Below, in pieces: positions 39,811 to 63,226 of a stretch of DNA of 64,000 bases. Made by a program: the position numbers and the translations under genes. Origin of the DNA: an uncultured bacterium (lineage in GTDB: Bacteria; Bacillota_I; Bacilli_A; RFN20; CAG-826). The DNA is taken from positions 131,835-195,834 of the forward strand of contig CASGDR010000001.1 in assembly GCA_949300345.1 (NCBI GenBank), written 5' to 3'. The notes beneath the pieces are model-generated. The model was not told the DNA's origin, made no database searches, and was given only the letters and a program-made list of their open reading frames with translations. Numbering within the stretch: position 1 is the stretch's first letter; each line of letters opens with the position of its first letter.

Positions 39811-39836
39811 AAAAAGACCGGGGATTTCACTCCCCA
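39811..39836 (-). terminator. Rho-independent terminator overlapping stop of serine recombinase
   Basis: On the minus strand, GGGGAGTGAAATCCCC is followed by GGTCTTTTTAT. Confidence 0.55.
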
Positions 39837-44071: not shown

Positions 44072-45532
44072 ATGATGAGATTCAACCTGGACTTTCTGAC
44101 GGTATTCACCCTGGTAAAGCAATCCCTGACGAACGACTTGTCGGAGAACGAGATTTACAGGCGCCTGATATGCCTCGGCAACGAAAATCTGGACGGAAAG
44201 AACGACCCCCATCGTCACATAACAGGTGAAACGCAGATCAATGGGTCCAGAAACTCGTCCATCATAGGCAAATCTTCGATTGAGGTAATGGCCCGCTCAT
44301 ATGACTCGCTTTTCAGCGATTATATGAGCGTCTCCACGCGGAAGCGGATGGTATCCGTTCTCAAGGAAATACTGAAATCGTGCAACTGGCCCGACCCAGA
44401 ATTGGAAATAGGTGAAGGCAGCGGATTTACGCTCGAATCGGTCATCAACGGGAAGAGCTTTTGCTTCCCCTACCTCCTTGCGGCTTTGGTTAAATTCACG
44501 GTGCCAAGGGAAAACCCGCACAGGAAAGACTTCAAGGAATACCGCGTCACTGTCGTCGACTGCTACAACAGCGCGCCGGATGAGAACCTGGATTTGGTTC
44601 CGATCGACCTTGCGCTCCCCCGCGAAAAGGACACTTCGAGAATCGACGGAGCCGAATTCCGGAGGTTCTTCACGGAGGTGAATTCCGAGAAGTTTCCGGA
44701 GCAGTTCAAAGGCGCGGGCGACGTGAAGATTTTTCGTCTGAACATCAGGAACTCCCGGTTCGACTACGAAGGCCTCTCGGGATTCCTCGAGGAGAACATC
44801 GAGCATTATGTGATGAGCTCGCTCGAGGAAAAGTCCTACTATGACGAGCAGAGGACAAAGCATCTCACGCACGACGCAATAAAGAGGTTCGCGGCCTCCG
44901 CTTCCGGCAAAGACCTCCGCGAAGTTTATTCGCGGCTCATGCTTTACGTCTTCATGGAAGGCGGCCTCGGCGCGCCGAAGATATTCAACGCCGTCGAGAT
45001 AAAGGACAAGAACATTAGGAGCGACGGTGTTTACTACCTGCGAAAAGGGGTTATTTCCGACAAGCCTATGCTCATCCTCGGCGCATCGCAAACCTTCCCG
45101 ACGCTGGATGAGGCCATGGAAAACGGGCTTGCCCAAATCGACGTGATTTCGAGAGAGCAGGACAAGATGCTGTCTTTCATAAACCCCGCGTTCCTACGGA
45201 TGAGATTCGAGCAAGATGATCTCTCCTACATAGTCGACCGTCTCATAAAAGCGGAAGGAATTCTACAGAACGACGCGGCGTTCGGAGTGTTCCTCTCCTA
45301 TTCGCTCGATGAGTCGAACGATGGCAACTTATCCTCTAACGAGTTCAGGCAGAAAGTAGAGGAAAGAATGGAAAGGGACATAGCCGATGCGGTTCCCATG
45401 ATTTACGCGAAGATCAAGGAGCACGGGCTGCAAAACTATGGTTTCTTCGTGTTCGTCCTTCCCCTAACGAACGTGGAGACTGACGCCGAGAAGGTAATAC
45501 GCGGATTCGCCGGAGGAGAAATGAATGGCTAA
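44072..45532 (+). CDS. Unknown 486 aa protein, first gene of helicase/nuclease module (candidate HamA/DUF1837-like, unverified)
   Basis: No signal peptide and no recognised canonical motif. There is a possible restriction-endonuclease-like E...ExK segment, LYVFMEGG...NAVEIKDK. It overlaps the downstream helicase gene by 8 nt. Confidence 0.5.
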   Translation: MMRFNLDFLTVFTLVKQSLTNDLSENEIYRRLICLGNENLDGKNDPHRHITGETQINGSRNSSIIGKSSIEVMARSYDSLFSDYMSVSTRKRMVSVLKEILKSCNWPDPELEIGEGSGFTLESVINGKSFCFPYLLAALVKFTVPRENPHRKDFKEYRVTVVDCYNSAPDENLDLVPIDLALPREKDTSRIDGAEFRRFFTEVNSEKFPEQFKGAGDVKIFRLNIRNSRFDYEGLSGFLEENIEHYVMSSLEEKSYYDEQRTKHLTHDAIKRFAASASGKDLREVYSRLMLYVFMEGGLGAPKIFNAVEIKDKNIRSDGVYYLRKGVISDKPMLILGASQTFPTLDEAMENGLAQIDVISREQDKMLSFINPAFLRMRFEQDDLSYIVDRLIKAEGILQNDAAFGVFLSYSLDESNDGNLSSNEFRQKVEERMERDIADAVPMIYAKIKEHGLQNYGFFVFVLPLTNVETDAEKVIRGFAGGEMNG

Positions 45533-48110
45533 CCGCGTCCAAGAGATTCTTTTCCCTCGGCTAGAAGCAAGCCCCGTACTGAAACTACTTTTCTCTAAGC
45601 TTCTACAGGCCTACACAAGACTTAATTTCGGGATGGCACCGCCATCATTTGCCGAAAAGGAGATTAACCAGCTCATATCGTTCGCAAGCCTGCTCTCCAA
45701 ATCGAACGATTCCGGCCAAAAGGTCATATCCGAGCAAATCGTGGCACTGCTCGGAAAGCTCTACCCCGCCTCGGAAAGCATCAGGAAAGCCAAGGCGGAA
45801 GTGCTTTCCTCATGCACAAACTACGTCGGGATGAAGGTGGAAAAAATGGAGGGAAGGAGCGACGACGTATTCCAGGAAATCAGCTCGGAAATCCAAATGG
45901 AATCGCTGAAGATTCCGTTTCAGGACGGCAAGTTCTTCATAGACGACCAAAAGGAGATATTCGACAGCTTCGAGAAATACCAATTCGTCAGCTACTCCGC
46001 CCCCACGTCGCTTGGGAAATCGTTCGTAATGAGGATCTACCTCAAATACAAGGTTGCCAGCGGATACCGAGGAAACTTCGCGATAATCGTCCCAACAAAG
46101 GCCCTCATCAACGAGATGAGGAACAGCGTCGTCGAAGAGGACCTGAAGGACCTTCTCCGGAAGATGCACTACAGGGAGGTTTCGTCGGTCAACGAGGTAT
46201 TCGTCACCGAAGACAAGGAATCGAAGTTCATCTTCATAGTGACACCGGAGAGGCTCCACTATCTCCTCAACAGCACCGACATAGCCATCGACTGCTGCTT
46301 CGTCGACGAGTCATACAAGATATCGGAGCCCGACTCAAGGAGCCTCTACTACTATCAGGCAATAAACCAGCTCCTTGCTCGGAACCCTAAGACGAAAATA
46401 TTCTTCTCGTCCCCGAACATACCGAACCCCGAAGTCTATCTCGAAACGATAAAGGCGCCCGGGACAAGATACAGGAAGGCGACCGGGTACTCGCCCGTCA
46501 GCCAGATCAAGTACCTCATCTCGCTGAAGGAAAAAGACCGGCCAATCAAGGTGTTCAACGACCTCACCCAGGTGTTGGAGGACACGGGCATGACGAACCC
46601 GTCCACGAACATCAACGACATAATATCCACGCTGAAGACGAAGGGCGGGAACATCGTCTATTGCTCAGGGAAGGACAAGACCGTTGAGCTTGCCCTGCAA
46701 TATGCCAATTTCCTGCCCGCCTTCCAGCCCAGCACGCCTGAGGAAAGGGAAAATCAGGAAAAGCTTGACGCCCTGGCTAAGAGCATCGAGCAGGACATCC
46801 ACGAGGATTACTACCTCGCCGCTCTCATGCGAAAGGGCGTCGCCTACCACGTCGGCTACCTGCCGAATTCGCTCAGGAACAGCATAGAGAAGGCGTTCAA
46901 GACCGGGCTCATAAAGACCATCTTCTGCACGAGCACCCTAATGGAGGGGGTCAACCTCCCCGCGGACAACCTCTTCGTGACGAGCACGAGGAATGGCTCA
47001 GAGGCCATGTCTCCGACTGCGTTCAAAAACCTCCTCGGTAGGATTGGAAGGATCAATTACAGTCTTTTCGGGAACGTCTACCTCTTAGTCATCCCTCGCT
47101 ATGCCAATGCCGAAAAGTACGAGGAGCTGCTCACGTCAAAGGTCGAACCACAAAAACTGTCGCTCGATAAGATAGTCACGGACGGGTCGATCGTCGACCA
47201 CATCAGCGACGATGCATATTTCTTCGGACGCGAGGACGAGGACCAGACGAAAAGGATAGCGGCCAACATCTACATAAACGACGTTAAGAATGGCACGGAA
47301 TCACTCATCAGGGAAAGGGTCGACTCAAAAAGCGAGGAGACATTGGTTGACAAGGCTATAAGGAAAATCGAATTGCTGGAAACATCGGAAAGCATAGACA
47401 TCTCACCGGACCAGCACGTGAGCCTCAAAAAGTACATAGAAAACGGCGGCCATTACCCCGATCCCGTGAACGGCCGGTTTGAACACAGCGACGTCTGGCG
47501 CTTCCTCAACGAGCTTTCGGACATTTATAAATGGGACAAGTACGAGTTCGAGACACTTAAGAACGGCAATTCGAACTCGTATTTCGCGACCGTCCTCTCC
47601 CAGTGGATGAGCGGACTCAAAGTAAAGGAAATCGTCGACCGATCGATAGAGAGCAAGAAAAAGAACCCATATGACGCGATCTTCGACAGAAAGCTCCACA
47701 TGAAGGTCGATTACATCGGCACGGTCGAGCAAAACAACATAATCATCAACGACACGCTCAGGACGATTGAGCAAACAATCCTTTTCACCATAGCGAACTA
47801 CTTCAGAGAGTTTTCGAGGGAATACAAGAACTTCCACCACCTGGAATATTTCGACAACGACTGGTACGAGTACGTAGAGTTTGGAACCAGCAACCCAATA
47901 ACCATCGCACTTCAAAGGAACGGATACATCCGCGAAACGGCCAAATGGATACACGAAAACGATTCAAAGTACCATCTGATCGATCAAACCCGCCGATGCA
48001 AATTCGCTCCATTCACCTTAGACCTCGACAACCTTTTGAAATGCGGCGAGCAGAAAGTAATTGAAGAGACGCTCGTCATCAAACTAAATGTCCCAGAGCT
48101 TTTTAGATAG
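45525..48110 (+). CDS. SF2 (Ski2/DExH-like) helicase, candidate HamB-like
   Basis: 861 aa with motif I SAPTSLGKSF, motif II CFVDESYK (DESY in place of DExH), a motif VI-like LLGRIGRIN, and FCTSTLMEGVNLP. Confidence 0.65.
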   Translation: MANRVQEILFPRLEASPVLKLLFSKLLQAYTRLNFGMAPPSFAEKEINQLISFASLLSKSNDSGQKVISEQIVALLGKLYPASESIRKAKAEVLSSCTNYVGMKVEKMEGRSDDVFQEISSEIQMESLKIPFQDGKFFIDDQKEIFDSFEKYQFVSYSAPTSLGKSFVMRIYLKYKVASGYRGNFAIIVPTKALINEMRNSVVEEDLKDLLRKMHYREVSSVNEVFVTEDKESKFIFIVTPERLHYLLNSTDIAIDCCFVDESYKISEPDSRSLYYYQAINQLLARNPKTKIFFSSPNIPNPEVYLETIKAPGTRYRKATGYSPVSQIKYLISLKEKDRPIKVFNDLTQVLEDTGMTNPSTNINDIISTLKTKGGNIVYCSGKDKTVELALQYANFLPAFQPSTPEERENQEKLDALAKSIEQDIHEDYYLAALMRKGVAYHVGYLPNSLRNSIEKAFKTGLIKTIFCTSTLMEGVNLPADNLFVTSTRNGSEAMSPTAFKNLLGRIGRINYSLFGNVYLLVIPRYANAEKYEELLTSKVEPQKLSLDKIVTDGSIVDHISDDAYFFGREDEDQTKRIAANIYINDVKNGTESLIRERVDSKSEETLVDKAIRKIELLETSESIDISPDQHVSLKKYIENGGHYPDPVNGRFEHSDVWRFLNELSDIYKWDKYEFETLKNGNSNSYFATVLSQWMSGLKVKEIVDRSIESKKKNPYDAIFDRKLHMKVDYIGTVEQNNIIINDTLRTIEQTILFTIANYFREFSREYKNFHHLEYFDNDWYEYVEFGTSNPITIALQRNGYIRETAKWIHENDSKYHLIDQTRRCKFAPFTLDLDNLLKCGEQKVIEETLVIKLNVPELFR

Positions 48111-48119
48111 GAGGATACC

Positions 48120-50063
48120 GTGGAAACTCCCGATAAAATCATTCAATCATGCGATCCTTTGGATCTTCTTTCCAAACTTTCATATCTCAAGTGGCTAATG
48201 GCGACAGACGCTTTTTCGGATAGAGACAAGCAGCCATTCACCTTTTTGGAAGTCAAATACGCACTGCATTACGTCATGTCCTATCTGCTGTCCCATAAGC
48301 TTGGCGAAGCAGCTAATCAATCCATACAGTATGAAACAATTTCCACCTTAATCTGCGCGCTTGCCCAAGAAGAAATAAATAGAAAGTTTAACGAGGAAGC
48401 GACACTGGATAAGCTGTCAGGAAAACTTCAATACACTCAGAAAGACTCAGGCGAATTGCTTCCTTTATTCTACTCCGTTCCATTTCGCCACATTTTAGAA
48501 GGGGAAGATGACATAATCTCAGCAAAATACGGATGCAATTCGAATGACATACTCAATGATTTCGCGACATTGGTGGGCGCTTTCAATAACTCAGTAAGAG
48601 CCAAAGGAATGAAAGTTTTCGATTTCGTCAATAGGTTCAACGACTACTGCAACTCCTCCGCCTTGGCAATCCAAAAAAACATGAAAAGTTACGGCTTGTT
48701 CAAAACAATGTCAGGCCGAATAGGCCAATTCGCAGAAGACGAATTTGATCACGGTTACCCAATTTCGCTAATTAAGAAATTCAGGAAACTCTTCATCAGA
48801 GTTGACGATATTTTGTACTGCCCAGATTTGGAGCTTGTCCCAAATCTAATCGTCCGCTGCGTAGAAAGAGCGATGCAGCAAGACAAAAGGCAAAATCCAG
48901 AATGGGATCTGCGGATGAAGGAAAGAACAGAGAAACTCGTGAATGGCGCCCTTTCGCACTATTTCAAAGGAGGGACATACCATGCGAACTCAGAGTTTGG
49001 CCAGAAAGAAAAAGGGGAAAGCGATGGCCTCTTTGAATTCTTGGGACATCTTTTCATAATTGAAGTTAAAGCCGGAAAGCTTAGTCCCGATCCTGTCGAG
49101 TCAAATAACACCACTGTTCATCAATCCTACAAGGCAACGATAGGAAAAGGGACCAAGCAATGTGACAAGGCAGAAAATCATATTCTCGAACATGGCGGCA
49201 AATTCAAAGAAGACGGCCACGAATTCCGAGTGAATTACGATATTGAGCACATCATCAAACTCGTCATTTCATTTGAAGACCTTTCCGCTGTTTTGCCGGA
49301 TGAGAATATTCAAACCCCTAATCACACAATTCTCATGACTTATTTTGATTTGCTTATAGTGCTTGACTATATAAACGAACCAATTCTTTCCCTCAAATAT
49401 TTCTTGGAGAGAAGAAAGGCATTGGAGCATTGCTGGGATATTTCAGACGAAATGATTTATCTGGGTTTATTTAGCGACGACATGAATTTTACGTATCGCT
49501 TAAATTCCCAACCCTTTTCTTCTTCGGCAGACAACTCCACAAATTTCGTCCTTGATCCGCATTCGTTCACGCACGAAATAGAGATGCACTACACGCAACC
49601 AGAACGATATCCCAAACCAAAAATACATTTGAGTGAATTTCAAAGGCTGGTATTGGCGGCACTCAATGGAAAGGATAGCATCTCGTCTAAATGGGCAATG
49701 CCACTGCTTATGCTTCCTACTCAATTCGGAGATAAATTGATGTTGCTTTTCCAAAGGAATAATTGTCACAGAGGTTTTGCCCCACAAGTAGGCATGGCTG
49801 GGTTCGCAAACGGAAAACATATCGCCGTTATGGTGTCAAAAAAGCACATAGGAGAACAAAGATATATCTATTATGCCATTGCGAATAGGTTCTTCAGAAA
49901 GCATGGAGAAGCGAAAGAAATCGTAAGCCTGATTGTTGACGGCCAGCGTTCCCACCTCGAGGAAATTGACCATTCGCGAAAGGAATTAAACTATCAAAAG
50001 ACCCTAGATGCGCTTCAACAAATAGAAGCCAAATTTGGGTTTAGACAAAAGATCTACAAATAA
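48120..50063 (+). CDS. Large PD-(D/E)xK nuclease-fold protein of unknown family (AT-rich)
   Basis: 647 aa. A central motif ESDGLFEFLGHLFIIEVKAGK gives D...E-V-K. It starts 9 nt after the helicase stop. Its GC is markedly lower than that of its neighbours. Confidence 0.55.
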   Translation: METPDKIIQSCDPLDLLSKLSYLKWLMATDAFSDRDKQPFTFLEVKYALHYVMSYLLSHKLGEAANQSIQYETISTLICALAQEEINRKFNEEATLDKLSGKLQYTQKDSGELLPLFYSVPFRHILEGEDDIISAKYGCNSNDILNDFATLVGAFNNSVRAKGMKVFDFVNRFNDYCNSSALAIQKNMKSYGLFKTMSGRIGQFAEDEFDHGYPISLIKKFRKLFIRVDDILYCPDLELVPNLIVRCVERAMQQDKRQNPEWDLRMKERTEKLVNGALSHYFKGGTYHANSEFGQKEKGESDGLFEFLGHLFIIEVKAGKLSPDPVESNNTTVHQSYKATIGKGTKQCDKAENHILEHGGKFKEDGHEFRVNYDIEHIIKLVISFEDLSAVLPDENIQTPNHTILMTYFDLLIVLDYINEPILSLKYFLERRKALEHCWDISDEMIYLGLFSDDMNFTYRLNSQPFSSSADNSTNFVLDPHSFTHEIEMHYTQPERYPKPKIHLSEFQRLVLAALNGKDSISSKWAMPLLMLPTQFGDKLMLLFQRNNCHRGFAPQVGMAGFANGKHIAVMVSKKHIGEQRYIYYAIANRFFRKHGEAKEIVSLIVDGQRSHLEEIDHSRKELNYQKTLDALQQIEAKFGFRQKIYK

Positions 50064-50111: not shown

Positions 50112-52166
50112 TCAATCATTCAACTGCTTTTCAAACGACTGCTTGATGATGTCCATGACGTCGTCCAACTGGCCCAAGTTATCCAGAATAACTTCGACGT
50201 TTCCATTCCCCCACCTTCCAACGCCGGTAACGTCTTTGCATATTCCCTTTGGATCGTTCACCTCGGAGAAATCCATGTTGATGGCGATTCTCAGCCTGCT
50301 TTCCTGAAAGACGATGTCCGTGAAATTCGTGTCCAGCTTATAGGCAACGTAGAGTTTTTTGAACTCCCTTCGCACCGAGGAAGACAAGTTCATAATCCTG
50401 GTGTCAAGTTTCTCGAAAAACATCTTAGTCAGTAAATTCGGCCTGTAGGAATCGAGACTGTACTTCGGCTCGTTTCCCTTATCCTGCACGTAGGGAGCGA
50501 GTTGCTCCGATGCAAGGTTTGGATATTGCCATATTTCAAGAGCCTTGGCTGCCAAAAGTTTGGCCCTTTCCTCGATCTTGTCTCCGTTCCAAGTGCTCTG
50601 AAGAACAATGTACTCATTAAGCCTACAAGCCGTCTGGCGGAATCCGCCTTTCATGACCATTTTCTCCATGAAAGGCTTGTCGCTCATCTCTGAGTTGTAT
50701 CCGGTTAGGGTGAGATTGCCGATGGTATGTAGATATTTCGAATGGGCTGCTTTCCAATCGCTTCCTAGCATGGCCTTCCAGTCGTCGTTTAGCCGATCGT
50801 TTTGGGGCATGATATGCTCGATCGTCATCGAAAGCACGTCCACCGGGGACTTGTTGTCGTAGTTTTCAAGGCGGTCAAGGATGTAGTTCCTGTTCCGCAT
50901 GTTGTAGATATCCCTGCTAACAAATGCCTTTTCGAATTCCTCGTCGTTAGGGAACTCCTTATACCCCTCACGGGTGAGGAAGAACGCCTTCAAGGAGACA
51001 AGGTAATCGTCCTTTTTTATTTCGTTTTCCAAGGTGGCGAATGTCTTGTTGAGCGAGTTTGTGGCAAGATCGCATATGCTTCTTCTCAGCACGTAGCTTA
51101 TACATAGACGGATGATTTCGCCCGTATCGGAATTGCTTACAAGGCCGGAAGCGTTGTCACGGAGGACTGCCATTAGAAATGGGTTGGCAACGCCCATGTT
51201 TAGTTCCTTAACCTCACGGAATAACTCGGCCAAATTCTGATCCTTGCTTCTGGCAAAGATGATGTCTGTGTATATCTTTCCCATCCGGTAGATGTCATTG
51301 CAAAGCTCTTCGCTGCTTGCGAAAGGACAGTTGATCCGCCACGATTTGAACTCGTCATACACGTTCGCCTTGTTCGGGATTCTGTGGTTATACATCGTCA
51401 AGTAGTCCCTGAAGAACGAATCCATGTTGGAGTCCTGGCTTTCGTGCCCGAAGAGTTCCTCGAATGGGCGCCACACCTTGGAATAAAGGCTTTCCTGAGC
51501 TTCCTTCGTCATCCCCATGAGGACGAAGTTTCTAATCAAGTCAGACTGCGAGAGAGCCTTGCCAGTGGAATTGAGACTTTCAAAGATGGCTTGCGGATCA
51601 TCACGGCCCCTTTCGAGCGTGATGATGACTATTTGCAGCTTCCCCGTTGCCTCAAACAGAGAATCGGTAGAGATTTCGTTTTTTGCAATCTTGCTTTTAA
51701 AGAACTCGTAGGCATTGAGCAGCTTCGACTTGGTTCCTTCTGCTATGGGCTTAGATTCGACGAGGGAAACGAGGACGTCCTTGTCCTCCTCCGTCAGCAG
51801 TAGCTTGTACTTCTGCTCGCCGCTTTCATACTGGTTCATGAGAAACGATGTGTTGATCTTCTGCTTTTCGAGATCGCCGTCTATGGAATCTCGGAGCGCG
51901 ATAAGGACGAGGGCCAAGGTCGTGAGGCGCTGCTGCCCGTCGATGACCATGTATTTTTGGACACCAGTTGGAGCCGTTTTCTCCGCAATGCAGACTATTG
52001 AACCCAAGAAGTGACTGTCCCTGTTTTCCTTCTGCATTTCCACGATATCGTCCCAAAGGCGGCCGTACTGGGATTCATCCCAGCTGTATAGTCTCTGGTA
52101 AATTGGGACTATGTACTGTTTCAGCCCGTTCAGCAATTCGAATATGTTCCCCTTGTTAGCGTCCAT
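50112..52166 (-). CDS. DUF262 (ParB/GmrS-like) + DUF1524 (HNH/His-Me, GmrD-like) fusion protein; GmrSD-family defense/type IV restriction-like
   Basis: 684 aa with N-terminal IYQRLYSW...IDGQQRLTTL and C-terminal TIEHIMPQN. It overlaps the hsdR stop by 11 nt. Confidence 0.75.
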   Translation of the reverse strand: MDANKGNIFELLNGLKQYIVPIYQRLYSWDESQYGRLWDDIVEMQKENRDSHFLGSIVCIAEKTAPTGVQKYMVIDGQQRLTTLALVLIALRDSIDGDLEKQKINTSFLMNQYESGEQKYKLLLTEEDKDVLVSLVESKPIAEGTKSKLLNAYEFFKSKIAKNEISTDSLFEATGKLQIVIITLERGRDDPQAIFESLNSTGKALSQSDLIRNFVLMGMTKEAQESLYSKVWRPFEELFGHESQDSNMDSFFRDYLTMYNHRIPNKANVYDEFKSWRINCPFASSEELCNDIYRMGKIYTDIIFARSKDQNLAELFREVKELNMGVANPFLMAVLRDNASGLVSNSDTGEIIRLCISYVLRRSICDLATNSLNKTFATLENEIKKDDYLVSLKAFFLTREGYKEFPNDEEFEKAFVSRDIYNMRNRNYILDRLENYDNKSPVDVLSMTIEHIMPQNDRLNDDWKAMLGSDWKAAHSKYLHTIGNLTLTGYNSEMSDKPFMEKMVMKGGFRQTACRLNEYIVLQSTWNGDKIEERAKLLAAKALEIWQYPNLASEQLAPYVQDKGNEPKYSLDSYRPNLLTKMFFEKLDTRIMNLSSSVRREFKKLYVAYKLDTNFTDIVFQESRLRIAINMDFSEVNDPKGICKDVTGVGRWGNGNVEVILDNLGQLDDVMDIIKQSFEKQLND

Positions 52167-55100
52167 CGCTTTCCCCTCCCATTACGTTGTCCGTCCAAAG
52201 TTCGCACTGCTCGAGAACGGTCTGGATGGCCTTCTCGCGCTCCTCTCCTTCGGGCGGATACTTGTATTTCTTCAAGAGCCTTTTCACTAACATTTTCATG
52301 TGCGAGCGGGCACCCTCGCGCTTCTGCCAGTCTATCGTCTCGTTCTTCCTGAGGAGCTCGGTCAGTTCCTTGGTCATCGCCACCAGTTCGTCGTTCGTGT
52401 AGAAGTCCATGACCGCGGCTGGCTGCGTAAGCGCGTCGTAGAAAGCCTTCTCTTCGGTAGTAAGCCCAAGTTCCTTGCCCTGCTCCGTCGCTTTGCGAAT
52501 CTGCTCGGCCAAATCGAGAAGCTCGTGCATGACCTCCTCGTTCGTCAACATCCCGTTCAGGTACTTGGTGACGATTCTCTGGATGATCTCGCTGAATTTA
52601 ACGGACTGGACCAGGTTGGTCTTCCTGAATATCCTAATCTGCTCGCTGATGAGCTTCTTCAAAAGCTCGACCGCGATGTTCTTCTCCTTCATCTTCGATA
52701 TCTCAGCTAGGAAGTCGGGATTGAATAGCGAAAAGCTCACTTCCCTGTCCTCGAAGAGGTTGATTACACCTTCGGAGATCACGCTTTGTTTGAGCAGCTC
52801 GCTGACCTTGTCGTTGACCTCTGACAGGCTGTATTTCTTGGGCCCGCCGGCGCTTTCGAGCCTGTTGAGGAGGACCCTCACGGATTCGAAGAAAGAGGCT
52901 TCGTGCCTTTCCTCTGCGGTCGCGAGGGACGAGCAAAGAGAAAGAGCTTGGTGGCAAAGGAGGCCCTGTTTGAGGAAATCCTTCTTGGTCTCGGCAAGCT
53001 CCGGCGCGACCATGAAGTTGACGGCCCCTGTGATCGTCTGGGCCTTTACGAGGTCGTCTCCGCTGTTGAAGGCCGCCCAGTCGAATCCGTGGAACAGGTC
53101 CTTGCATACCTGGAGCTTCTCCTGGAACTTCGGATAGGCTTCCTTTGAGACGTCCATGTCGCCGAAGTTCTTCTGGTCGCGGACCGTGTATTCCCTCATG
53201 GCTTGCTTTAGGGCGTTCGCTATCCCGATGTAGTCGACGACTAGGCCGCCCTCCTTGTCCTCGAAAACGCGGTTCACCCTCGCGATTGCCTGCATGAGGT
53301 TGTGGCCGACCATCGGCTTGTAGACGTACATGGTCGCAAGGGACGGTATGTCGAAGCCGGTCAGCCACATGTCGACGACGATGGCAATCTTGAGCGGCGA
53401 CGAGTTGTCCTTGAACCTCGTCGCGAGTTCCTGTTTGCGCGCCTTGTTGCCGATGATGTCCCTCCACCATTCAGGGTCTCGGTTGTCGCTCGTCATCACC
53501 ACCGCCACCTTCTCGGTCCAAGTCGGCCTCTGCCGGAGGATTTCCTTGTAGATCTCCATTGCAATCGGCCTTGAATAGGCGACGATCATCGCCTTGCCAG
53601 TAAGCAGGTGCTCGCGGTTGTTCTCGTAGTGGCCGATGATGTCGGTCACCAACGAGTTTATGGTCTTCGGGTTCCCCAAGACTGCCTCAAGCTGGCCGAG
53701 CTTCCGCTTGCTGGCTTCGATGACGGAAGGATCGGAATCCTCCTCCAGCTTATCGTAGAGGTCGTCAATCTTGCCTATGGTCTCCTCGTCGAGCTTCAGC
53801 TTGATGACGCGGCTTTCGTAATAGACCGGCCTTGTGGCCCCGTCGGCCACGGACTGTGTCATGTCGTAGATGTCGATGTAGTCGCCGAATATCTCCTTGG
53901 TGTTGTGGTCCTTGCTGAACACCGGGGTCCCGGTGAAACCGATGTAGGTGGCGTTCGGGAGGGCGTCCCTGACCTTCCTGGCGTAGCCTATGGTCGTTAC
54001 GGCGACATCGTTGCCGTTCTCATCTTTCTTTATTCGCACTTTTTCCGTGAGGCCGTATTGGCTTCGGTGCGCCTCGTCGGACATGACGACGATGTTCTTC
54101 CTCGTCGAAAGGGGCTTGGCTGACTCGGTGAACTTCTCGATCGTGGTGAAGAAGATGCCGTTGGCCTTCCTTTCGTCGAGTAGCTTGACGAGGTGCTCGC
54201 GCGACTCGGCCTGGATGGGCTTTTGCCTCAGGAACTCGGAGCACTTGGCGAACTGCGAGAAAAGCTGATCGTCAAGGTCGTTTCTGTCGGTAAGGACAAC
54301 GATCGTAGGACTATCTAGGTGCTGCTGGAGTAGATGTGCGTAAAAGACCATCGAAAGGGACTTGCCGCTCCCCTGAGTGTGCCAGAAGACGCCGCCCTTC
54401 CCGTCGGTAGCCACCGCCCTTTCCGTCGACTTGATGGCCTTGTTGACGGCGAAGTACTGGTGGTAGGCCGCCATGATCTTGAACGTCTTTATCCCCTCGT
54501 TGGAGAAGCAGATGAAGTTCCGGATGATGTCGAGGAGGCGCTCCTTCGGGAATATCCCCTCGAAGAAAACGTCGAAGGTGGCGACGCAATCGGTGGTGTA
54601 CGTACCATCCTTGCTCTTCCATTCCATGAACCTCTCCTCGTCGGAGGTGATGGTCCCGGCCTTCGAAAGAAGGAGGTCCGACATGACGCATAAGGCATTG
54701 TAGATGAACATCGACGGGATTTCGTGGATGTAGTTCCTTATCTGAGAGTATGCCTCCGAAGCATTCGTCTCCTCCCTAGAAGGCGACTTCAGTTCCATGA
54801 GCACCACCGGGAGGCCGTTTAGGAAGATAAGGATGTCCGGGCGCTTGTTGCTCCTTTCCACAAAGGTCCACTGGTTCGCCACGACGAACGAATTCCTCTC
54901 CGGGTGATCATAGTCGACCAAGTAGCACATGTCGGACTTGGACTCCCCGTTCTCACGGTAACGGACCGGAAGGCCGTTCTGCAGATAGTCCATGAATAGC
55001 TTGTTTTTTTGGATGAGGTCGGCGTTTTCAAAGTGATGGAGCTTGTTCAAGGCGTCTTGGATGGCCTCTTCTTTGAGCGACGGATTTATCCTCCGCAGGG

Positions 55101-55236
55101 ATTCCTCCAATTCTCCCTCGTAAAGAGGCGATTCGTAGTCCCTATCCGGAAGGTCGGGGCCATAAACATGCCTGTAGCCGAGGCCTTCGAGAAGCTGGAC
55201 TATAGAATTCTCGTATGTATTTTCAGTGAATGGCAT
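52156..55236 (-). CDS. hsdR: Type I restriction enzyme R subunit
   Basis: 1026 aa with an N-terminal HsdR_N region, SF2 motifs GSGKSLSM and SDEAHRSQ, and a C-terminal helical domain. Confidence 0.9.
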   Translation of the reverse strand: MPFTENTYENSIVQLLEGLGYRHVYGPDLPDRDYESPLYEGELEESLRRINPSLKEEAIQDALNKLHHFENADLIQKNKLFMDYLQNGLPVRYRENGESKSDMCYLVDYDHPERNSFVVANQWTFVERSNKRPDILIFLNGLPVVLMELKSPSREETNASEAYSQIRNYIHEIPSMFIYNALCVMSDLLLSKAGTITSDEERFMEWKSKDGTYTTDCVATFDVFFEGIFPKERLLDIIRNFICFSNEGIKTFKIMAAYHQYFAVNKAIKSTERAVATDGKGGVFWHTQGSGKSLSMVFYAHLLQQHLDSPTIVVLTDRNDLDDQLFSQFAKCSEFLRQKPIQAESREHLVKLLDERKANGIFFTTIEKFTESAKPLSTRKNIVVMSDEAHRSQYGLTEKVRIKKDENGNDVAVTTIGYARKVRDALPNATYIGFTGTPVFSKDHNTKEIFGDYIDIYDMTQSVADGATRPVYYESRVIKLKLDEETIGKIDDLYDKLEEDSDPSVIEASKRKLGQLEAVLGNPKTINSLVTDIIGHYENNREHLLTGKAMIVAYSRPIAMEIYKEILRQRPTWTEKVAVVMTSDNRDPEWWRDIIGNKARKQELATRFKDNSSPLKIAIVVDMWLTGFDIPSLATMYVYKPMVGHNLMQAIARVNRVFEDKEGGLVVDYIGIANALKQAMREYTVRDQKNFGDMDVSKEAYPKFQEKLQVCKDLFHGFDWAAFNSGDDLVKAQTITGAVNFMVAPELAETKKDFLKQGLLCHQALSLCSSLATAEERHEASFFESVRVLLNRLESAGGPKKYSLSEVNDKVSELLKQSVISEGVINLFEDREVSFSLFNPDFLAEISKMKEKNIAVELLKKLISEQIRIFRKTNLVQSVKFSEIIQRIVTKYLNGMLTNEEVMHELLDLAEQIRKATEQGKELGLTTEEKAFYDALTQPAAVMDFYTNDELVAMTKELTELLRKNETIDWQKREGARSHMKMLVKRLLKKYKYPPEGEEREKAIQTVLEQCELWTDNVMGGESDGR

Positions 55237-55253
55237 AGCAGCCCTCCTTTCAT

Positions 55254-55281
55254 CCGTTTAAACGATAATTTATCGAAGCAG
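55254..55281 (+). repeat. hsdS recombination repeat R1 (forward; encodes NDNLSKQ)
   Basis: ccgtttaaacgataatttatcgaagcag. It is a 22 bp perfect inverted match to 55971..55992 and a 22 bp direct match to 57546..57567. Confidence 0.8.
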
Positions 55282-55344
55282 ATATCTACACTTATCGCTC
55301 ATGAATTCCCATATACAGCCGATGAATTCATAAGTGGTTGGCAT

Positions 55345-55968
55345 ATGGTTAACCTTACTGAAGTAGCTAGTTTTACGAATGGCTATTCATATAAGAGTGA
55401 TGATCTCAAGCCGAATGATGACATTGCCTTGGTCACCATTAAAAACTTTGATAGATATGGTGGATTCAAATTGGATGGCTTCAAAGAACTAATACCGTCT
55501 AGTCGAGTGAAGCCTGAGCAGTATGCTGATTTGTTCGATATTCTCGTAGCACACACAGATTTAACGCAAAACGCCGAAGTCATTGGTAATTCAGAAGTTG
55601 TGCTTTCAAAAGGGAGATATGGCAAACTGGTATTCTCGATGGACTTAGTTTGTGTAAGGCCAATAGGGAATTTTGGCAAATTCCTTCTAGCGGCTCTTTT
55701 GCACGACAGGCGCTTCAAAAAGCACTGTTTGGGGTATGTCAATGGGACTACAGTTTTACACCTAAATAAAAACGCTCTAAAAGAATATTGTTTTCTTGTT
55801 CCGGATGACCCTTCAATACTATGCAAGTTAGATTTGCTTCTCGGTGACTTATATCGAAAACAGTCAGAAATCATCGAAGAAAACATTCGCCTCTCAGAAA
55901 CAAGAGATCTTCTGTTAAAAAAGTTGTTGTCTGGTGAGACAGAATCGCTAGATTTTTTAGAAAGGTAA
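55345..55968 (+). CDS. hsdS: Silent partial hsdS cassette (single target-recognition domain plus conserved C-terminus)
   Basis: 207 aa from MVNLTEV, ending LLLKKLLSGETESLDFLER. It is in frame with the upstream repeat R1 and flanked by inverted repeats R1 and R2. Confidence 0.7.
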   Translation: MVNLTEVASFTNGYSYKSDDLKPNDDIALVTIKNFDRYGGFKLDGFKELIPSSRVKPEQYADLFDILVAHTDLTQNAEVIGNSEVVLSKGRYGKLVFSMDLVCVRPIGNFGKFLLAALLHDRRFKKHCLGYVNGTTVLHLNKNALKEYCFLVPDDPSILCKLDLLLGDLYRKQSEIIEENIRLSETRDLLLKKLLSGETESLDFLER

Positions 55969-55992
55969 GACGATAAATTATCGTTTAAACGG
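55969..55992 (-). repeat. hsdS recombination repeat R2 (inverted copy)
   Basis: gacgataaattatcgtttaaacgg is the reverse complement of R1. Confidence 0.8.
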
Positions 55993-56066
55993 ACGTAGCT
56001 CCCCCGCGGCGGGAGGCCGAGAGAAACAGCCGCGGAAAGCGCTTCTCCAGTAATAAGGAGGAGAAC

Positions 56067-57053
56067 ATGAAAGAAGAATTCGTCAACCTCGTCGTTCAGG
56101 ACATGCTTCCGTTCCTGAACAACGCTCAGCTCGAGAAGCTCAAGGAATCCCTTGAGAGAGAACTGATTGGGAAGCAAATCGTCGAAGAAAGAAAGGAGGA
56201 CAAGATGGACTGGAACGAAGGATACGTCCAGAAGTTCATTTCATCGAAAAGGCTTGAAGGGTGCTCCGAGAAATCGCTCCTTTACTACGAAAAGACGATT
56301 AACAGGGTCTTAGGCGAAATAGGAAAGCCCCTTAAGACTATCGTTACTGATGACCTTAGATCATATCTAACCGCTTATCAGGCAAAAAACGAGGTGAGCA
56401 AGGTCACAATCGACAACGTCAGGAGGATTCTTTCTAGCTTCTTCTCATGGCTGGAAGACGAAGACTACATCCTGAAAAGCCCTGCCAGGAGGATCCATAA
56501 GGTCAAGGCGACGATCAGCATCAAAAACACATTCACGGACGAAGAGATAGAGATGATGCGTGACGCCTGCGAATCCCCTCGCGACCTTGCGATAATCGAC
56601 ATGCTTTCTTCGACCGGCATGAGGGTGGGGGAGATGATCAAGCTCAAGCGCTCCGACGTTAACCTAGTCGAGAGGGAATGCGTGGTTCTCGGCAAGGGCG
56701 ATAAACAAAGAACCGTGTACTTCGACGCACGAACGAAGATTCATCTTCAAAGATATCTGGAGACTCGTACCGATTCTCTGGATTCCCTGTTTTTATCTAG
56801 ATGCAGGTCCGGCCAGCCGCTGGGCATAGGCGGAATAGAGCATCTTATAAAGAAATTAGGAACGCTTATCGGTATCAAAAAGGCACATCCACATAAGTTC
56901 AGAAGAACGTTAGCAACTGGTGCTATAGATAAGGGGATGCCAATTGAGCAAGTTCAACAGTTACTAGGACATAAGCGCATTGACACCACATTGATGTATG
57001 CAATGGTTAAACAAGCAAACGTCAAAGCTTCTCACAGACGATACATAGGTTAG
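56067..57053 (+). CDS. Tyrosine site-specific recombinase (XerC/D-like, shufflon invertase)
   Basis: 328 aa with the R (MRVGE), K (GKGDKQR), H-x-x-R (HPHKFRRT) and Y (TTLMYA) catalytic signature. It lies between the hsdS cassettes. Confidence 0.85.
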   Translation: MKEEFVNLVVQDMLPFLNNAQLEKLKESLERELIGKQIVEERKEDKMDWNEGYVQKFISSKRLEGCSEKSLLYYEKTINRVLGEIGKPLKTIVTDDLRSYLTAYQAKNEVSKVTIDNVRRILSSFFSWLEDEDYILKSPARRIHKVKATISIKNTFTDEEIEMMRDACESPRDLAIIDMLSSTGMRVGEMIKLKRSDVNLVERECVVLGKGDKQRTVYFDARTKIHLQRYLETRTDSLDSLFLSRCRSGQPLGIGGIEHLIKKLGTLIGIKKAHPHKFRRTLATGAIDKGMPIEQVQQLLGHKRIDTTLMYAMVKQANVKASHRRYIG

Positions 57054-57066
57054 GGAGGAAAAAGAC

Positions 57067-58131
57067 ATGAAAAAAACCAGACTTGGTGACATTGCCATAA
57101 TAACGATGGGCCAATCGCCTGAATCCTGTTTTTACAATACTGAAGGGCGAGGAATGCCTTTCTTACAGGGCAGCAAAACATTTGGAAGAATATTTCCGAC
57201 ATTTTCCTCTTTTACTGAGAGAACTACTAAAACCGCATTGAAAGGGGACGTTTTAATGAGCGTTCGGGCACCTGTCGGCGACATTAACATCGCTCCAACT
57301 GATATGTGCATCGGCCGTGGTCTTTGTTCTATCAGAATGAAAAACGGCAACCAAAAATACCTTTTCTATCTTTTGAAGAATAACATTCACAATATTCTCA
57401 GCAAACAAAATGGAACAGTGTTTGCTTCCGTAAACAGAAAAGATTTAGAGAGCCTAGAACTGTATGTTTTGAACGAAGAGGAGCAGAAATCTTTCGGGGA
57501 TTTCTTGGCACTCTTCGATGAAAAAATTAATTTGAATGATGAGATAAACGATAATTTATCGAAGCAGGCAGAAGCTATTTTTGAAGCCGCCTTTGCCGAT
57601 TCGATGTATGGTGACAAGAAGATTTCCGACTTTATTTTGCCTAAGCGAGGCAAGTCCCTTCTATCAAAGGATGCAACTGCCGGAGATGTTCCAGTTGTAG
57701 CTGGCGGACTTGAGCCGGCAACATTTCACAATGCAGCTAATACGGTAGCTCCGGTCATAACGATTTCAGCTTCTGGGGCAAATGCCGGTTTTGTGAGGCT
57801 TTGGAACGTTCCGGTTTGGTCTTCTGACTCATCTTTCATTGATAAGACGATGACGGACATAGTCTATTTCTGGTATTTGGCGTTGAAGACCAGGCAAGAT
57901 GAGATTTATGGGGCCCAAACTGGTTCGGCCCAGCCACATGTTTATCCTCAGAATGTCAGTTCGTTACCAATCGGCGAATTAGATCAAGTGAAGGCGAAAG
58001 AGGTTAATAGCCTACTCACGCCTCTATTTGAAAAGATAGGAGAAAACGAACTAGAGAACCAAAAACTTGCAAGCCTAAGAGATTCATTGCTTCCGCGATT
58101 GCTCAGCGGAGAGATAAATCCGGCGGAATAA
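57067..58131 (+). CDS. hsdS: hsdS gene copy with two target-recognition domains, inverted relative to hsdM (silent donor or alternately expressed)
   Basis: 354 aa. TRD-A is followed by the central conserved NDEINDNLSKQAEAIFEAAF (repeat R3), then TRD-B and a C-terminus LLPRLLSGEINPAE. Confidence 0.75.
   Translation: MKKTRLGDIAIITMGQSPESCFYNTEGRGMPFLQGSKTFGRIFPTFSSFTERTTKTALKGDVLMSVRAPVGDINIAPTDMCIGRGLCSIRMKNGNQKYLFYLLKNNIHNILSKQNGTVFASVNRKDLESLELYVLNEEEQKSFGDFLALFDEKINLNDEINDNLSKQAEAIFEAAFADSMYGDKKISDFILPKRGKSLLSKDATAGDVPVVAGGLEPATFHNAANTVAPVITISASGANAGFVRLWNVPVWSSDSSFIDKTMTDIVYFWYLALKTRQDEIYGAQTGSAQPHVYPQNVSSLPIGELDQVKAKEVNSLLTPLFEKIGENELENQKLASLRDSLLPRLLSGEINPAE
57544..57567 (+). repeat. 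hsdS recombination repeat R3 (forward)
   Basis: ataaacgataatttatcgaagcag is identical to the core of R1 and inverted relative to R4. Confidence 0.8.
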
Positions 58132-58664
58132 AAGGTTCGCTTCGATAAATTATCGTTTATCTTGTTGTTTTGAGTAATTTTGTCATCAAGGTCGCTCAGG
58201 AGCCGAGAAACAGCTTTCTGCTCATCCAAACTTGGAAGATCAATTGAAATTTCGCCAAAAATATGGGAAGTGATCGTGTCAAATACAGATCCATTGGCCG
58301 CCTTTTTCAGTATACGGACAGCATTCTTCAAAAAATAGAAAAGGTAATCTGGGTCAACAAGGGTCGCATGTGGATGGATTCCAAAGCACGATTGGTTAAA
58401 AGCCATCGTCTTTTTTATCATGGCTATTTCTCCAACCGTTCCCCTTGCTGATATTACGATGTCATTTTCACTCAAGAGTTTAGTTGAACTATTTTTAAGT
58501 CCCTCTTCTGTAATACTTTTTTCCGTCTTCTCAACATATTTCGATCCCTCACGGATATCTTTGACTGAAATCCAAGGAATATCTCCATTCCAATAACACG
58601 GAACTGTTGTTTTGGGAGTGCCACCACCAATAATGTCGGAAATTTCGGAGATTTTATAAGTCAT
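57984..58664 (-). CDS. hsdS: Expressed-locus hsdS (TRD1) downstream of hsdM; reading frame leaves HsdS-like sequence after repeat R4
   Basis: MTYKISEISDIIGGGTP... is an N-terminal TRD, then KINDNLSK at repeat R4. After that the frame reads antisense of the plus-strand hsdS C-terminus, non-HsdS-like, until the stop at 57984. It overlaps the hsdM stop by 11 nt. Confidence 0.65.
   Translation of the reverse strand: MTYKISEISDIIGGGTPKTTVPCYWNGDIPWISVKDIREGSKYVEKTEKSITEEGLKNSSTKLLSENDIVISARGTVGEIAMIKKTMAFNQSCFGIHPHATLVDPDYLFYFLKNAVRILKKAANGSVFDTITSHIFGEISIDLPSLDEQKAVSRLLSDLDDKITQNNKINDNLSKRTFYSAGFISPLSNRGSNESLRLASFWFSSSFSPIFSNRGVSRLLTSFAFT
58141..58160 (-). repeat. hsdS recombination repeat R4 (inverted copy)
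   Basis: ttcgataaattatcgtttat is the reverse complement of 57544..57563. Confidence 0.8.
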
Positions 58665-60168
58665 AGCCGAGCCCCTTTAGATTTTTCCGAATTTCTGTTT
58701 CAAGCTCGTGTGATTTTTCGAACAGTTCGGATAATTCACTTGTAAGTCGGCTCATTTTTTCTTCGAACGGTTCGCCGTCATCCTCTTGCTCCTCAATTCC
58801 GACGTATCGGCCAGGGGTAAGCACAAATCCATGCTCCCCAATCGTCGCTATATCCGCCACGGCACAATAGCCTTTCTCATCGCTTAGAGTTCCGTTTTGG
58901 AATTGCTCAAAAGTATCAGCAAGCTTCTTGATGTCGTCATCCGAGAAGTCGCGATGAGTCCGGTCCACCATGTGACCCATCTTCCTAGCATCAATGAACA
59001 AGGTCCTACCCTTCCGCTTCTTGTTTTTGGTTATGAACCAAAGCGAAACCGGGATAGTAACGCTGTAGAAAAGCTGAGTCGGCATTGCAATGATCCCCTC
59101 GATGAGATCGGCTTGGATGATCTTTTTGCGTATCTCTCCTTCACCGCTGGAATTCGATGTTAGGGCACCGTTTGCAAGGACAAGGCCGATTTTACCGTTT
59201 GGCGCAAGATGATAAATCATGTGCTGTATCCAGGCAAAGTTGGCATTCCCGGCAGGTGGAAGTCCATAAGCCCAACGCACGTCGTCAACAAGGTTCTCTT
59301 GCCCCCACGGGTGGTAATTGAACGGTGGGTTTGCCAAAACAAAATCAGCCCGCAATGTCTTATGAAGGTCGTGAGCGAACGTATCATCCGGATTAGGGCC
59401 GAAATCGGCATCGATTCCACGGATTGCCATGTTCATCTTGGCCATCTTCCAAGTGTCGGGATTGGCTTCCTGCCCGTAAACGGAAATTGTTCCTCTCCTT
59501 CCGGTATGCTCTTGGATAAAGTTGGCCGATTGCACGAACATGCCGCCGCTTCCGCAACATGGGTCATAGACCCGACAGTTCGAAAAGGGCTTAAGAATGG
59601 AAACTAGTGTTTTGACGATGCTTGAAGGCGTGTAATATTCGCCACCCTTCTTGCCCTCTTTCGCAGCGAACTTCGCAATGCAGTACTCATAAGTCCTGCC
59701 CAAAAGATCTTTTTCTTCATTGTCGCTCATGTTCACGTTGGTGAAAATGTCGACGACGTTTCCAAGGACAGACTGGTCCAAATCCGGATTGGCGTAATTC
59801 TTCGGAAGGACGTTTTTCAAACTTGGATTTTCTTTCTCAATGGCCTCCATGGCCGTATCAATAACTTTTCCAATCTCGGGCTTATGGGCGTTTGCGGAAA
59901 TGGTTTCCCACCTGGATTCCTTCGGCAAGTAGAAAACATTCACCTCTTTGTAAGCATCTTTATCGTCTTCAAAACCATCGCCTTCAGCGACAAGTTCCTG
60001 ATAGCGATGTTCGAAGGCCGTGGAGACATAGCGAAGGAAGATTAGCCCAATCACTACTTGCCGATACTCGGTTGTAGGAATGTGCCCCCAAAGAACGCAG
60101 GCAGCATCCCAGATTTCCTTCTCAAAACCAATAGTAGCGTTTGATTTGTTTTTGTCAGCCATTATCAC
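58654..60168 (-). CDS. hsdM: Type I R-M N6-adenine DNA methyltransferase subunit
   Basis: 504 aa with an HsdM N-domain, a SAM motif and the catalytic NPPF (VLANPPFNYHPWGQE). Confidence 0.9.
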   Translation of the reverse strand: MIMADKNKSNATIGFEKEIWDAACVLWGHIPTTEYRQVVIGLIFLRYVSTAFEHRYQELVAEGDGFEDDKDAYKEVNVFYLPKESRWETISANAHKPEIGKVIDTAMEAIEKENPSLKNVLPKNYANPDLDQSVLGNVVDIFTNVNMSDNEEKDLLGRTYEYCIAKFAAKEGKKGGEYYTPSSIVKTLVSILKPFSNCRVYDPCCGSGGMFVQSANFIQEHTGRRGTISVYGQEANPDTWKMAKMNMAIRGIDADFGPNPDDTFAHDLHKTLRADFVLANPPFNYHPWGQENLVDDVRWAYGLPPAGNANFAWIQHMIYHLAPNGKIGLVLANGALTSNSSGEGEIRKKIIQADLIEGIIAMPTQLFYSVTIPVSLWFITKNKKRKGRTLFIDARKMGHMVDRTHRDFSDDDIKKLADTFEQFQNGTLSDEKGYCAVADIATIGEHGFVLTPGRYVGIEEQEDDGEPFEEKMSRLTSELSELFEKSHELETEIRKNLKGLGYDL

Positions 60169-60371
60169 TTCTCCTCTGTTATGGGTGCGATATCCTTATC
60201 CTTCATCAACTGTTCTAACTTGGCCTTAGCGATTTTTGTGGGCTCAAAATGCCCATTTTCCCACCGATTGACTGTTTGGAAGGTTACATCCAAAAGGTCA
60301 GCTAATCCTTGTTGAGAAAGTCCTAGTTCAGTGCGTATTTTTACTATCGTTTTTTTATAATCGACCCTCAT
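60165..60371 (-). CDS. XRE-family (Cro/cI-type) HTH transcriptional regulator
   Basis: 68 aa with the HTH LGLSQQGLADLLDVTFQTVNRWENG. The stop overlaps the hsdM start by 4 nt. Confidence 0.7.
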   Translation of the reverse strand: MRVDYKKTIVKIRTELGLSQQGLADLLDVTFQTVNRWENGHFEPTKIAKAKLEQLMKDKDIAPITEEK

Positions 60372-60507: not shown

Positions 60508-60900
60508 TTATGCTTTTTGGCTGGCGGTCTTGAGCGTGTTTATGCTCGCCTCGATCTGCGTGGTGACCCAGGCGTCGACGTCCCCGAAGTGCGTCTCGAT
60601 GTAGTCCCTGACGTCATCGCCAAGCTGGGCGAGGACGATGCCCTTGGCCTTGTTGAGCGCAGTGAGTTGGGCGTCCTTGCCGAAGTTCCCCTCCTTCTTC
60701 AAGGAATCGACATAGGTCTGGAACACGCACCTCACGGCATCCAAGACAATCGTTGTTGCATCCGTGATGTACTTCTCGGTCTTTTCATTGTCTATCTTGG
60801 CAGAGATCCACTTGATGAGTTTGCCTCCAAGCAAGGTGATGAGCGGAATGATTACGGCTGTCACAATGCAGCTCAAAACATTCAATAAGATTTCGTTCAT
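60508..60900 (-). CDS. Phage holin (LL-H-like family)
   Basis: 130 aa with an N-terminal TM helix, then KWISAKIDNEK...QTYVDSLKKEGNF..., reminiscent of LL-H holins. Confidence 0.55.
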   Translation of the reverse strand: MNEILLNVLSCIVTAVIIPLITLLGGKLIKWISAKIDNEKTEKYITDATTIVLDAVRCVFQTYVDSLKKEGNFGKDAQLTALNKAKGIVLAQLGDDVRDYIETHFGDVDAWVTTQIEASINTLKTASQKA

Positions 60901-63212: not shown

Positions 63213-63226
63213 TTCTCATTCCTCCT

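Follow-up and report, generated by a model that had tools for sequence, protein, structure and literature searches.

A single-chain GmrSD-family nuclease with a C-terminal DUF5655 domain encoded directly after hsdR in an uncultured bacterium

The subject of this work is a gene for a GmrSD-family (HEC-06-like) nuclease of 684 amino acids (aa), which lies on the minus strand at positions 50112..52166 of a 64,000-nucleotide (nt) stretch of DNA from an uncultured bacterium (GTDB lineage Bacteria; Bacillota_I; Bacilli_A; RFN20; CAG-826; contig CASGDR010000001.1 of assembly GCA_949300345.1). This whole stretch is referred to below as the window. The nuclease gene closes a type I restriction-modification (R-M) operon that runs along the minus strand in the order helix-turn-helix (HTH) gene, hsdM, 5' half of hsdS, a shufflon of 2.9 kilobases (kb), hsdR and nuclease. 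Its product is composed of three domains, as seen in the open reading frame (ORF) and its translation and in searches of Pfam and PADLOC.

The nuclease gene and its protein

The nuclease gene begins within hsdR. On the minus strand the hsdR frame closes with ...GAT GGA CGC TAA, the TAA being at 52158-52156, and the nuclease ATG is found at 52166-52164, so that the end of one gene and the start of the other have 11 nt in common (52156..52166). The 3' end of hsdR also contains a Shine-Dalgarno-like element, GGGAGGGG (52173..52180, minus strand), whose GGAGG core is placed 8 nt 5' of the nuclease ATG and which may act as the ribosome-binding site of the nuclease. The start methionine and the first residues of the protein are kept across 33 homologues, which are 58-71% identical to the nuclease and also make up the motif alignment described below. 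The 11-nt overlap is confined, among the loci compared, to the lineage of the window. The gene is under purifying selection, with codon differences from a 95%-identical relative that number 65 synonymous and 8 nonsynonymous. The length of 684 aa and the 11-nt overlap with the hsdR stop had both been given in a preliminary description of this DNA, and are borne out by the ORF list and the sequence. The co-transcription with hsdR that was claimed there is also very likely, we infer, because the two genes are on the same strand and overlap, with no space for a terminator between them.

The N-terminal part of the protein is a DUF262/GmrSD_N domain, a ParB-like nucleoside triphosphatase (NTPase) domain that covers residues 9-215 (51522..52142, minus strand; PF03235, E 9.7e-39). 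This is followed by a linker (residues 216-405; 50952..51521, minus strand), which is all-helical in an AlphaFold2 model, and then by the DUF1524/GmrSD_C His-Me finger nuclease domain (residues 406-540; 50547..50951, minus strand; PF07510, E 2.6e-25). Across the 33 homologues the N-domain motifs Q24-R25, I75-DGQQR80 (D76-R80) and F195-E-S-L-N199 are invariant, as are the residues E450-H451-I-M-P454, N484 and N491 of the nuclease domain. The DUF262 signatures and the C-terminal His-Me EHIxP motif that had been proposed for the protein therefore stand, since both Pfam profiles match it at E-values well past any chance level and the His-Me motif is conserved.

The fold is in keeping with this arrangement. 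The AlphaFold2 model, built from the 33-sequence alignment with a predicted local distance difference test (pLDDT) score of 81, shows an N-domain of the alpha/beta type, a middle that is helical throughout (221-434, with a block pLDDT mostly of 78-96) and a separate C-terminal alpha+beta domain. Near H451 there is a beta-beta-alpha unit, made of strands 448-451 and 485-488 and the helix 499-504. When the whole model is compared with the PDB by Foldseek, the matches are DndI (9JFL, E 1e-14), SspE (7DRS, E 1e-13; also 6JIV) and BrxU (7P9K, E 8e-5), all with a probability of 1.00. At the level of sequence, phmmer against the PDB sequences gives weak N-terminal matches only (SspE and a DUF262 protein), with BrxU 7P9K absent at E < 0.01, and no model in NCBIfam matches the nuclease. 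The best PADLOC match is 'Orf5' (PDLC02693, E 2e-168), a label whose origin was not traced in the literature. The HEC-06 profile (PDLC04157, E 3.1e-70) aligns residues 8-547 with profile positions 14-556 of 558, and other PADLOC matches include mREase_IV (E 1.5e-27) and SspE profiles (up to E 5e-24). The features that define GmrSD membership are all present, namely the DUF262 motifs, a DUF1524 His-Me finger with conserved Asn, and a one-chain helical linker and fold. The protein is, as judged from its sequence, a full-length and bona fide single-chain GmrSD-family member, of the HEC-06-like branch.

The third domain, DUF5655, was absent from the preliminary description. It covers residues 581-680 (50127..50426, minus strand; PF18899, E 5.9e-11) and is a possible DNA-binding module; the C-terminal 100 residues also match PADLOC PDC-S18, a candidate defence protein (E 1.5e-22). 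Residues 548-684 were modelled separately from 40 diverse sequences, and the model (pLDDT 93) consists of a helix, four or five strands and a long C-terminal helix. In the PDB, Foldseek relates it to E. coli YjbR (2FKI; probability 0.99, template-modelling (TM) score 0.53-0.60), to YdhG/DUF1801 (2OC6, probability 0.97; 9T2W) and to PSPTO_3016. In a viral library the best match is a phage DUF5655 protein (E 3.7e-6), accompanied by phage G gp54 and by weak matches to MotA of the T4 type. YjbR has been described as containing a 'double-wing' motif that resembles the DNA-binding domain of MotA, and the NCBI name for its family is 'MmcQ/YjbR family DNA-binding protein'. DUF5655 is thus modelled as a YjbR/YdhG-like alpha+beta fold and, because of that likeness, may bind DNA, which is no more than a reasonable guess.

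An exhaustive search with DUF5655 through 1.84 billion representatives finds 1238 proteins at E <= 0.001. Ten of the longer matches were scanned with Pfam, and in these the closest DUF5655 domains are almost all within GmrSD fusions: GmrSD_C is present in seven of the ten, three of which have GmrSD_N too, while two or three tandem copies of DUF5655 are found in 3/10 and DUF7662 in 1/10. These cases are among P0216, P0203, P0294 and P0317, of which some have two or three DUF5655 domains in tandem after GmrSD_C and one has DUF5655 joined to DUF7662. A word-indexed search with DUF5655 alone returned nearly only contig-end fragments and was uninformative on architectures. The same kind of search with the nuclease returned at least 8000 proteins, and all three Pfam domains are present in 120/120 among the matches listed. 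The DUF262-DUF1524-DUF5655 architecture is therefore widespread, being found in thousands of database proteins. In the literature searched, DUF5655 is mentioned only in an unrelated context. The C-terminal additions recorded by Machnicka et al. are DUF4268, DUF4357 and DNA_binding_1, with DUF5655 not among them (PMC4619093), and the EcoSal review describes many cases in which GmrSD is fused to a domain without a known function. The three-domain architecture appears unstudied, and this uncharacterised fusion is a mildly new aspect of the protein.

The type I operon, its linkage to the nuclease and its setting

The likely first gene of the operon encodes an XRE-type HTH protein of 68 aa (60165..60371, minus strand; ORF and translation), which overlaps the start of hsdM and may serve the R-M operon as a controller protein. 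Two relatives, L092 and L093, have the HTH gene and hsdM in the same order (Pfam HTH_3/HTH_31). The methylase gene, hsdM (504 aa; 58654..60168, minus strand; Pfam N6_Mtase 1e-105, HsdM_N), is joined to a 5' half of hsdS (58139..58664, minus strand; ORF 57984-58664; Pfam Methylase_S 1.6e-29). This half encodes one target-recognition domain and the conserved central repeat, and its ORF continues into the antisense of a second gene, hsdS'. On the other side of the shufflon is an intact hsdR of 1026 aa (52156..55236, minus strand), with matches to Pfam HSDR_N, SWI2_SNF2, T1R_D3-like and T1RH-like_C, to TIGR00348 (1e-181) and to PADLOC REase_I (3e-295). A complete set of hsdM, hsdS and hsdR is contiguous with the nuclease gene and shares its strand. 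Strictly speaking the nuclease gene is not 'embedded', because it is terminal, with hsd genes on one side only.

The invertible hsdS shufflon (55253..58187) is recognised both by a repeat search and by inversions in relatives. The repeat TAAACGATAATTTATCGAAGC (21-nt core) occurs in four copies of alternating orientation, at 55259, 55971, 57545 and 58139, and there is a longer, 49-nt inverted pair at 57517-57565 / 58139-58187. Between the repeats, on the plus strand, are a tyrosine recombinase, the shufflon invertase (56067..57053; Pfam Phage_integrase 4e-31, NCBIfam XerA-like 5e-70), and hsdS', which has two target-recognition domains (57067..58131; Pfam Methylase_S, translation) and in the present state is on the opposite strand to hsdM. 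A silent target-recognition-domain cassette (55282..55968, plus strand; translation of ORF 55009-55968, repeat search) is bounded by perfect 23-nt inverted repeats at 55253-55275 / 55971-55993. In L092 and L093, whose nuclease protein is 99% identical to that of the window, the loci are mutually 99-100% identical except for two inverted segments. These are two target-recognition-domain segments, inverted in place between L092 (3985-4671, 6258-6908) and L093, and the recombinase-bearing segment is in turn inverted in the window relative to L092. The shufflon is thereby found in three states (window, L092, L093), and in that of the window the hsdS attached to hsdM encodes just one target-recognition domain, with the complete hsdS' located past the recombinase on the other strand. 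A phase-variable type I system had been claimed for this locus. The four alternating repeats, the recombinase and the inverted segments support that claim because close relatives differ by shufflon inversions in what is a between-sample comparison, and it is from these states of different samples that we infer switching within a strain.

How strictly is the nuclease tied to hsdR elsewhere? In a scan of one genome per species, 403 stretches encode the nuclease; they are mainly from Bacillota and also from Bacteroidota, Spirochaetia, Pseudomonadota and Synergistota. The best 80 of the 403 were compared as loci, with neighbours assigned by a simple gene call, upstream in 70 and downstream in 66. 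HsdR, identified by T1RH-like_C, is the immediate same-strand upstream neighbour in 44/70 species loci, and 33 of the 70 upstream neighbours contain HSDR_N and are on that ground called full length. A tblastn search with the HsdR of the window places a same-strand HsdR ending right before the nuclease in most loci with enough upstream DNA, and the gap between the two genes is 2-23 nt in nearly all linked loci. The same pair is present with homologues at 58% and 70% identity. The pairwise identities of HsdR and of the nuclease correlate across 33 species (Mantel r = 0.70, reached in 0/2000 permutations). The block held in common, at 95%, with close relatives consists of hsdR, the nuclease and a further gene, orf647, without hsdM and hsdS, so that the hsdR-nuclease pair travels together. 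Downstream neighbours are variable, with RhuM in 9/66, and a Xer-like recombinase is situated between hsdM and hsdR in at least a dozen loci. In the operon of the 58%-identical homologue (L001-L009, 2407-3456) a PIN_12 gene is found between hsdM and hsdS, so that this operon has two extra defence-type genes.

The linkage has its limits. In about one third of members, HsdR is missing from the position directly upstream or is reduced to a remnant. Four loci (L032, L038, L039 and L081) hold an intact nuclease gene after a C-terminal remnant of hsdR only (about 9100-9990), a pattern which suggests that the nuclease gene may be kept after decay of the type I system. More distant full-length homologues, at 40-43% identity, remain associated with type I genes in different geometries: in Ruegeria the gene separates hsdS from hsdR and has a 4-nt overlap with the latter, and its orientation relative to a type I operon is divergent in Picosynechococcus. 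A homologue in E. coli is detectable in 1481/5426 complete genomes (27%).

Coupling of a type I R subunit to a type IV enzyme had been described for this locus as uncommon. That view is contradicted, because both the literature and the counts in this subfamily show frequent linkage: alongside the 44/70 loci and the E. coli genomes above, type I R-M domains show the strongest enrichment of all next to GmrSD homologues (Machnicka 2015, PMC4619093), and Payne et al. report that genes of the GmrSD-like kind often occur embedded within type I systems (bioRxiv 10.1101/2024.01.29.577857). The finding is therefore real but ordinary, since the arrangement is already documented and common. Besides the DUF5655 fusion, the only mildly new point is the tight hsdR-nuclease module, in which the placement right after hsdR is unusually strict and appears unstudied.

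The wider surroundings of the operon are of mixed character. The window's first 38 kb consist of housekeeping genes, and the G+C content is lower from 38.4 kb on. There, an HNH-like gene (38396-39004) comes before a pair of large serine recombinases (39827-42692) and a complete Hachiman system on the plus strand (44072-48110), consisting of HamA (486 aa, PF08878) and HamB (861 aa, PADLOC HamB 2e-248). Hachiman ends 9 nt before orf647 and is absent in the close relatives L092-L094, where other genes come after orf647. The orf647 gene itself (647 aa; 48120-50063, plus strand) is convergent with the nuclease gene and has no match in Pfam, PADLOC, NCBIfam, PHROGs or PDB sequences; visual inspection shows a PD-(D/E)xK-like stretch (DGLFEF...IIEVKAG). 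It adjoins the nuclease gene in close relatives and is fast-evolving, with 72 synonymous versus 77 nonsynonymous codon differences. Because it is not kept beside distant nuclease homologues, it is not counted in the system, and it may be an undescribed defence gene. Past the operon there are a holin and an XhlA-like gene (60508-61211) and tail proteins (62361-63943). The region 38396-64000 looks like the end of a prophage that abuts housekeeping genes, and from the gene order the defence genes would be prophage cargo, carried between the lysis module and the integrases.

Predicted function and alternative explanations

What would such a nuclease contribute to a type I operon? The favoured answer, which is given a probability of about 0.65, is that the operon-terminal gene encodes a GmrSD nuclease that provides an independent second restriction activity, probably against modified phage DNA, with DUF5655 making contact with the DNA. 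Its nuclease and NTPase activities, its independence of HsdR, the modified-DNA target and the binding of DNA by DUF5655 are all predictions. The nuclease would be expressed together with the type I enzyme, because its gene is the last of the operon. The ParB-like DUF262 domain would bind and hydrolyse nucleoside triphosphate (NTP), thereby licensing the DUF1524 His-Me finger to cut invading DNA, and DUF5655 would probably contribute nucleic-acid contact. The nuclease most likely acts alone, on DNA that escapes the type I enzyme, and its most probable target is phage DNA with base modifications that confer immunity to type I restriction. That it works autonomously is argued on the basis that about a third of members are without a full HsdR directly upstream, and both TgvAB and BrxU act independently of their host systems (PMC11411939, PMC8565348). 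Layered defence of this kind against modified phage DNA is plausible here. It is the standard reading in the literature and an idea already published for BrxU with BREX (PMC8565348) and for TgvAB with a type I system (PMC11411939).

Several points weigh against the favoured reading. Neither activity nor target is readable from the sequence, and both are predicted from the family. Dependence on modification is uncertain and is the weakest step of the mechanism, because GmrSD relatives differ in target: SspE and DndI sense host phosphorothioate, and the GmrSD-like EF_B0059 restricts phi47, a phage whose DNA is apparently free of modification, and shows toxicity in E. coli without methylation (PMC11322646). 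The matches of DUF5655 to folds in the PDB are weak (Foldseek E 0.04-0.1), and YjbR is without proven function. Consensus scans for promoters and terminators across 49.8-60.6 kb find no more sites than in shuffled sequence and so do not show how transcription reaches hsdR and the nuclease across the shufflon.

The behaviour of EF_B0059 favours an alternative in which family and operon are the same but the nuclease is modification-independent and senses unmodified DNA, DNA structure, a phage protein or some other feature. The phage range of HEC-06 differs from that of BrxU (bioRxiv 10.1101/2024.01.29.577857), and DUF5655 could alter what the nuclease senses. However, most of the characterised members (GmrSD, Eco94GmrSD, BrxU and TgvAB) have modified cytosines as their target (PMC4437046, PMC8565348, PMC11411939), and repeated pairing with a type I enzyme that is blocked by modification fits complementary targeting. 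Modification independence is thus a lesser possibility, though one to be taken seriously. A more distant prospect is that hsdR and the nuclease form one functional unit, in which the nuclease is regulated or recruited by HsdR. It could be a guard or back-up that is silenced by the type I complex and freed by a phage anti-restriction protein, in the manner of PrrC with EcoprrI, or a second nuclease that is loaded by the translocating enzyme, with DUF5655 sensing or docking. Such a unit would account for the constant placement of the nuclease gene at the hsdR 3' end, for the co-variation of the two proteins and for the spread of hsdR and nuclease apart from hsdM and hsdS; PrrC, moreover, is almost exclusively embedded in type I systems. 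Yet co-inheritance of adjoining genes is expected without any functional link, and the members that lack an HsdR directly upstream, or that have a remnant beside an intact nuclease (L032, L038, L081), do not fit. Nor do the distant homologues, which are before hsdR or divergent from the operon, and HEC-06, BrxU and TgvAB protect without host systems. A dependence on HsdR, in either form, is accordingly held to be quite unlikely.

Two further explanations are rejected. The best Foldseek matches to DndI and SspE, together with the PADLOC SspE profiles, raise the prospect of an effector that senses host phosphorothioate in the way of SspE or DndI. However, there are no dnd or ssp modification genes within the 64-kb window, where the sole 'SspH' match is to the motor domain encoded by an ORF of 986 aa (8240-11200) among the housekeeping genes (one ORF there has a Pfam FtsK_SpoIIIE match). 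The conserved partner is type I R-M and not a phosphorothioate system, and the HEC-06 and 'Orf5' profiles of PADLOC score far above SspE, leaving this explanation very improbable. The idea that the gene is a decaying or non-functional remnant has in its favour the E. coli homologue examined, whose allele is interrupted by a premature stop (codon 33) and annotated in fragments. It is scarcely credible for the window, where the ORF is full length with all catalytic motifs and the codon differences are 65 synonymous to 8 nonsynonymous.

If the favoured reading holds, the gene would be one further example of the type IV GmrSD-like nucleases that are found in type I, BREX or Hma operons and cover phages with modified DNA. 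Its description is useful for annotating the defence island of the source genome. Were it true that DUF5655 sets the specificity or links the nuclease to HsdR, this would be a modest advance in the understanding of how restriction systems cooperate.

Comparison with known systems

The family was founded on GmrSD of E. coli CT596 and on Eco94GmrSD, which have the same two core domains and motifs and carry out NTP-stimulated cleavage of DNA containing glucosylated hydroxymethylcytosine (PMC4437046, PMC4619093). What they have in common with the window protein is limited to the family-level Pfam domains, and the window protein has an extra C-terminal domain. SspE and DndI (6JIV, 7DRS, 9JFL) are the best structural matches to the DUF262-linker-DUF1524 body, but they work with phosphorothioate modification genes, which the window lacks. 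Over residues 1-682, DUF5655 included, the window protein shares 43% identity with the homologue from the immigration control region of E. coli. This homologue is located between yjiN and symE-hsdS-hsdM-hsdR-mrr (L097; L098 = NZ_AP022222.1, 9001-11094) and differs in being convergent with hsdRMS rather than coupled to hsdR. RloF of Campylobacter jejuni is similarly a DUF262 gene, an 'R-linked ORF' in a type I locus (Miller et al. 2005, cited in PMC4619093); going by that description, it is situated between hsdS and hsdR.

Other relatives are housed within defence operons of their own. BrxU is a GmrSD-family enzyme that is embedded in BREX, where it gives complementary protection (PMC8565348), and the window protein matches its fold (7P9K). 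The sequence similarity is very low, however, the host system is BREX, and BrxU has no DUF5655. TgvAB, described in 2024 from the type I operon of V. cholerae VPI-2, restricts T-even phages independently of HsdR, and complementary targeting of modified and unmodified DNA, with TgvAB attacking hypermodified phage DNA, was proposed in that study (PMC11411939). Like the window gene, TgvAB represents GmrSD-family type IV restriction in a type I operon and has the strand of that operon. TgvAB, though, consists of two proteins, a DUF262-only TgvA and a DUF262-DUF1524 TgvB, amid the hsd genes, whereas the window has one protein, after hsdR and with DUF5655. HEC-06 is likewise a single chain of DUF262, helical linker and DUF1524, with the EHxxP motif and with identical numbering of DGQQR (Q79, R80). 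In HEC-06 the mutants Q79A/R80A of DGQQR and E471A/H472A of EHxxP no longer defend against phage (bioRxiv 10.1101/2024.01.29.577857), and the window protein has the corresponding residues. The antiviral effect of HEC-06 has thus been shown by experiment, and HEC-06 is found within another multi-gene defence system (Hma), whereas the gene in the window is terminal to a type I operon. Finally, the HEC-06 profiles stop after DUF1524, at about 560 positions, and to this the window protein, which is known from its sequence, adds some 140 residues with DUF5655.

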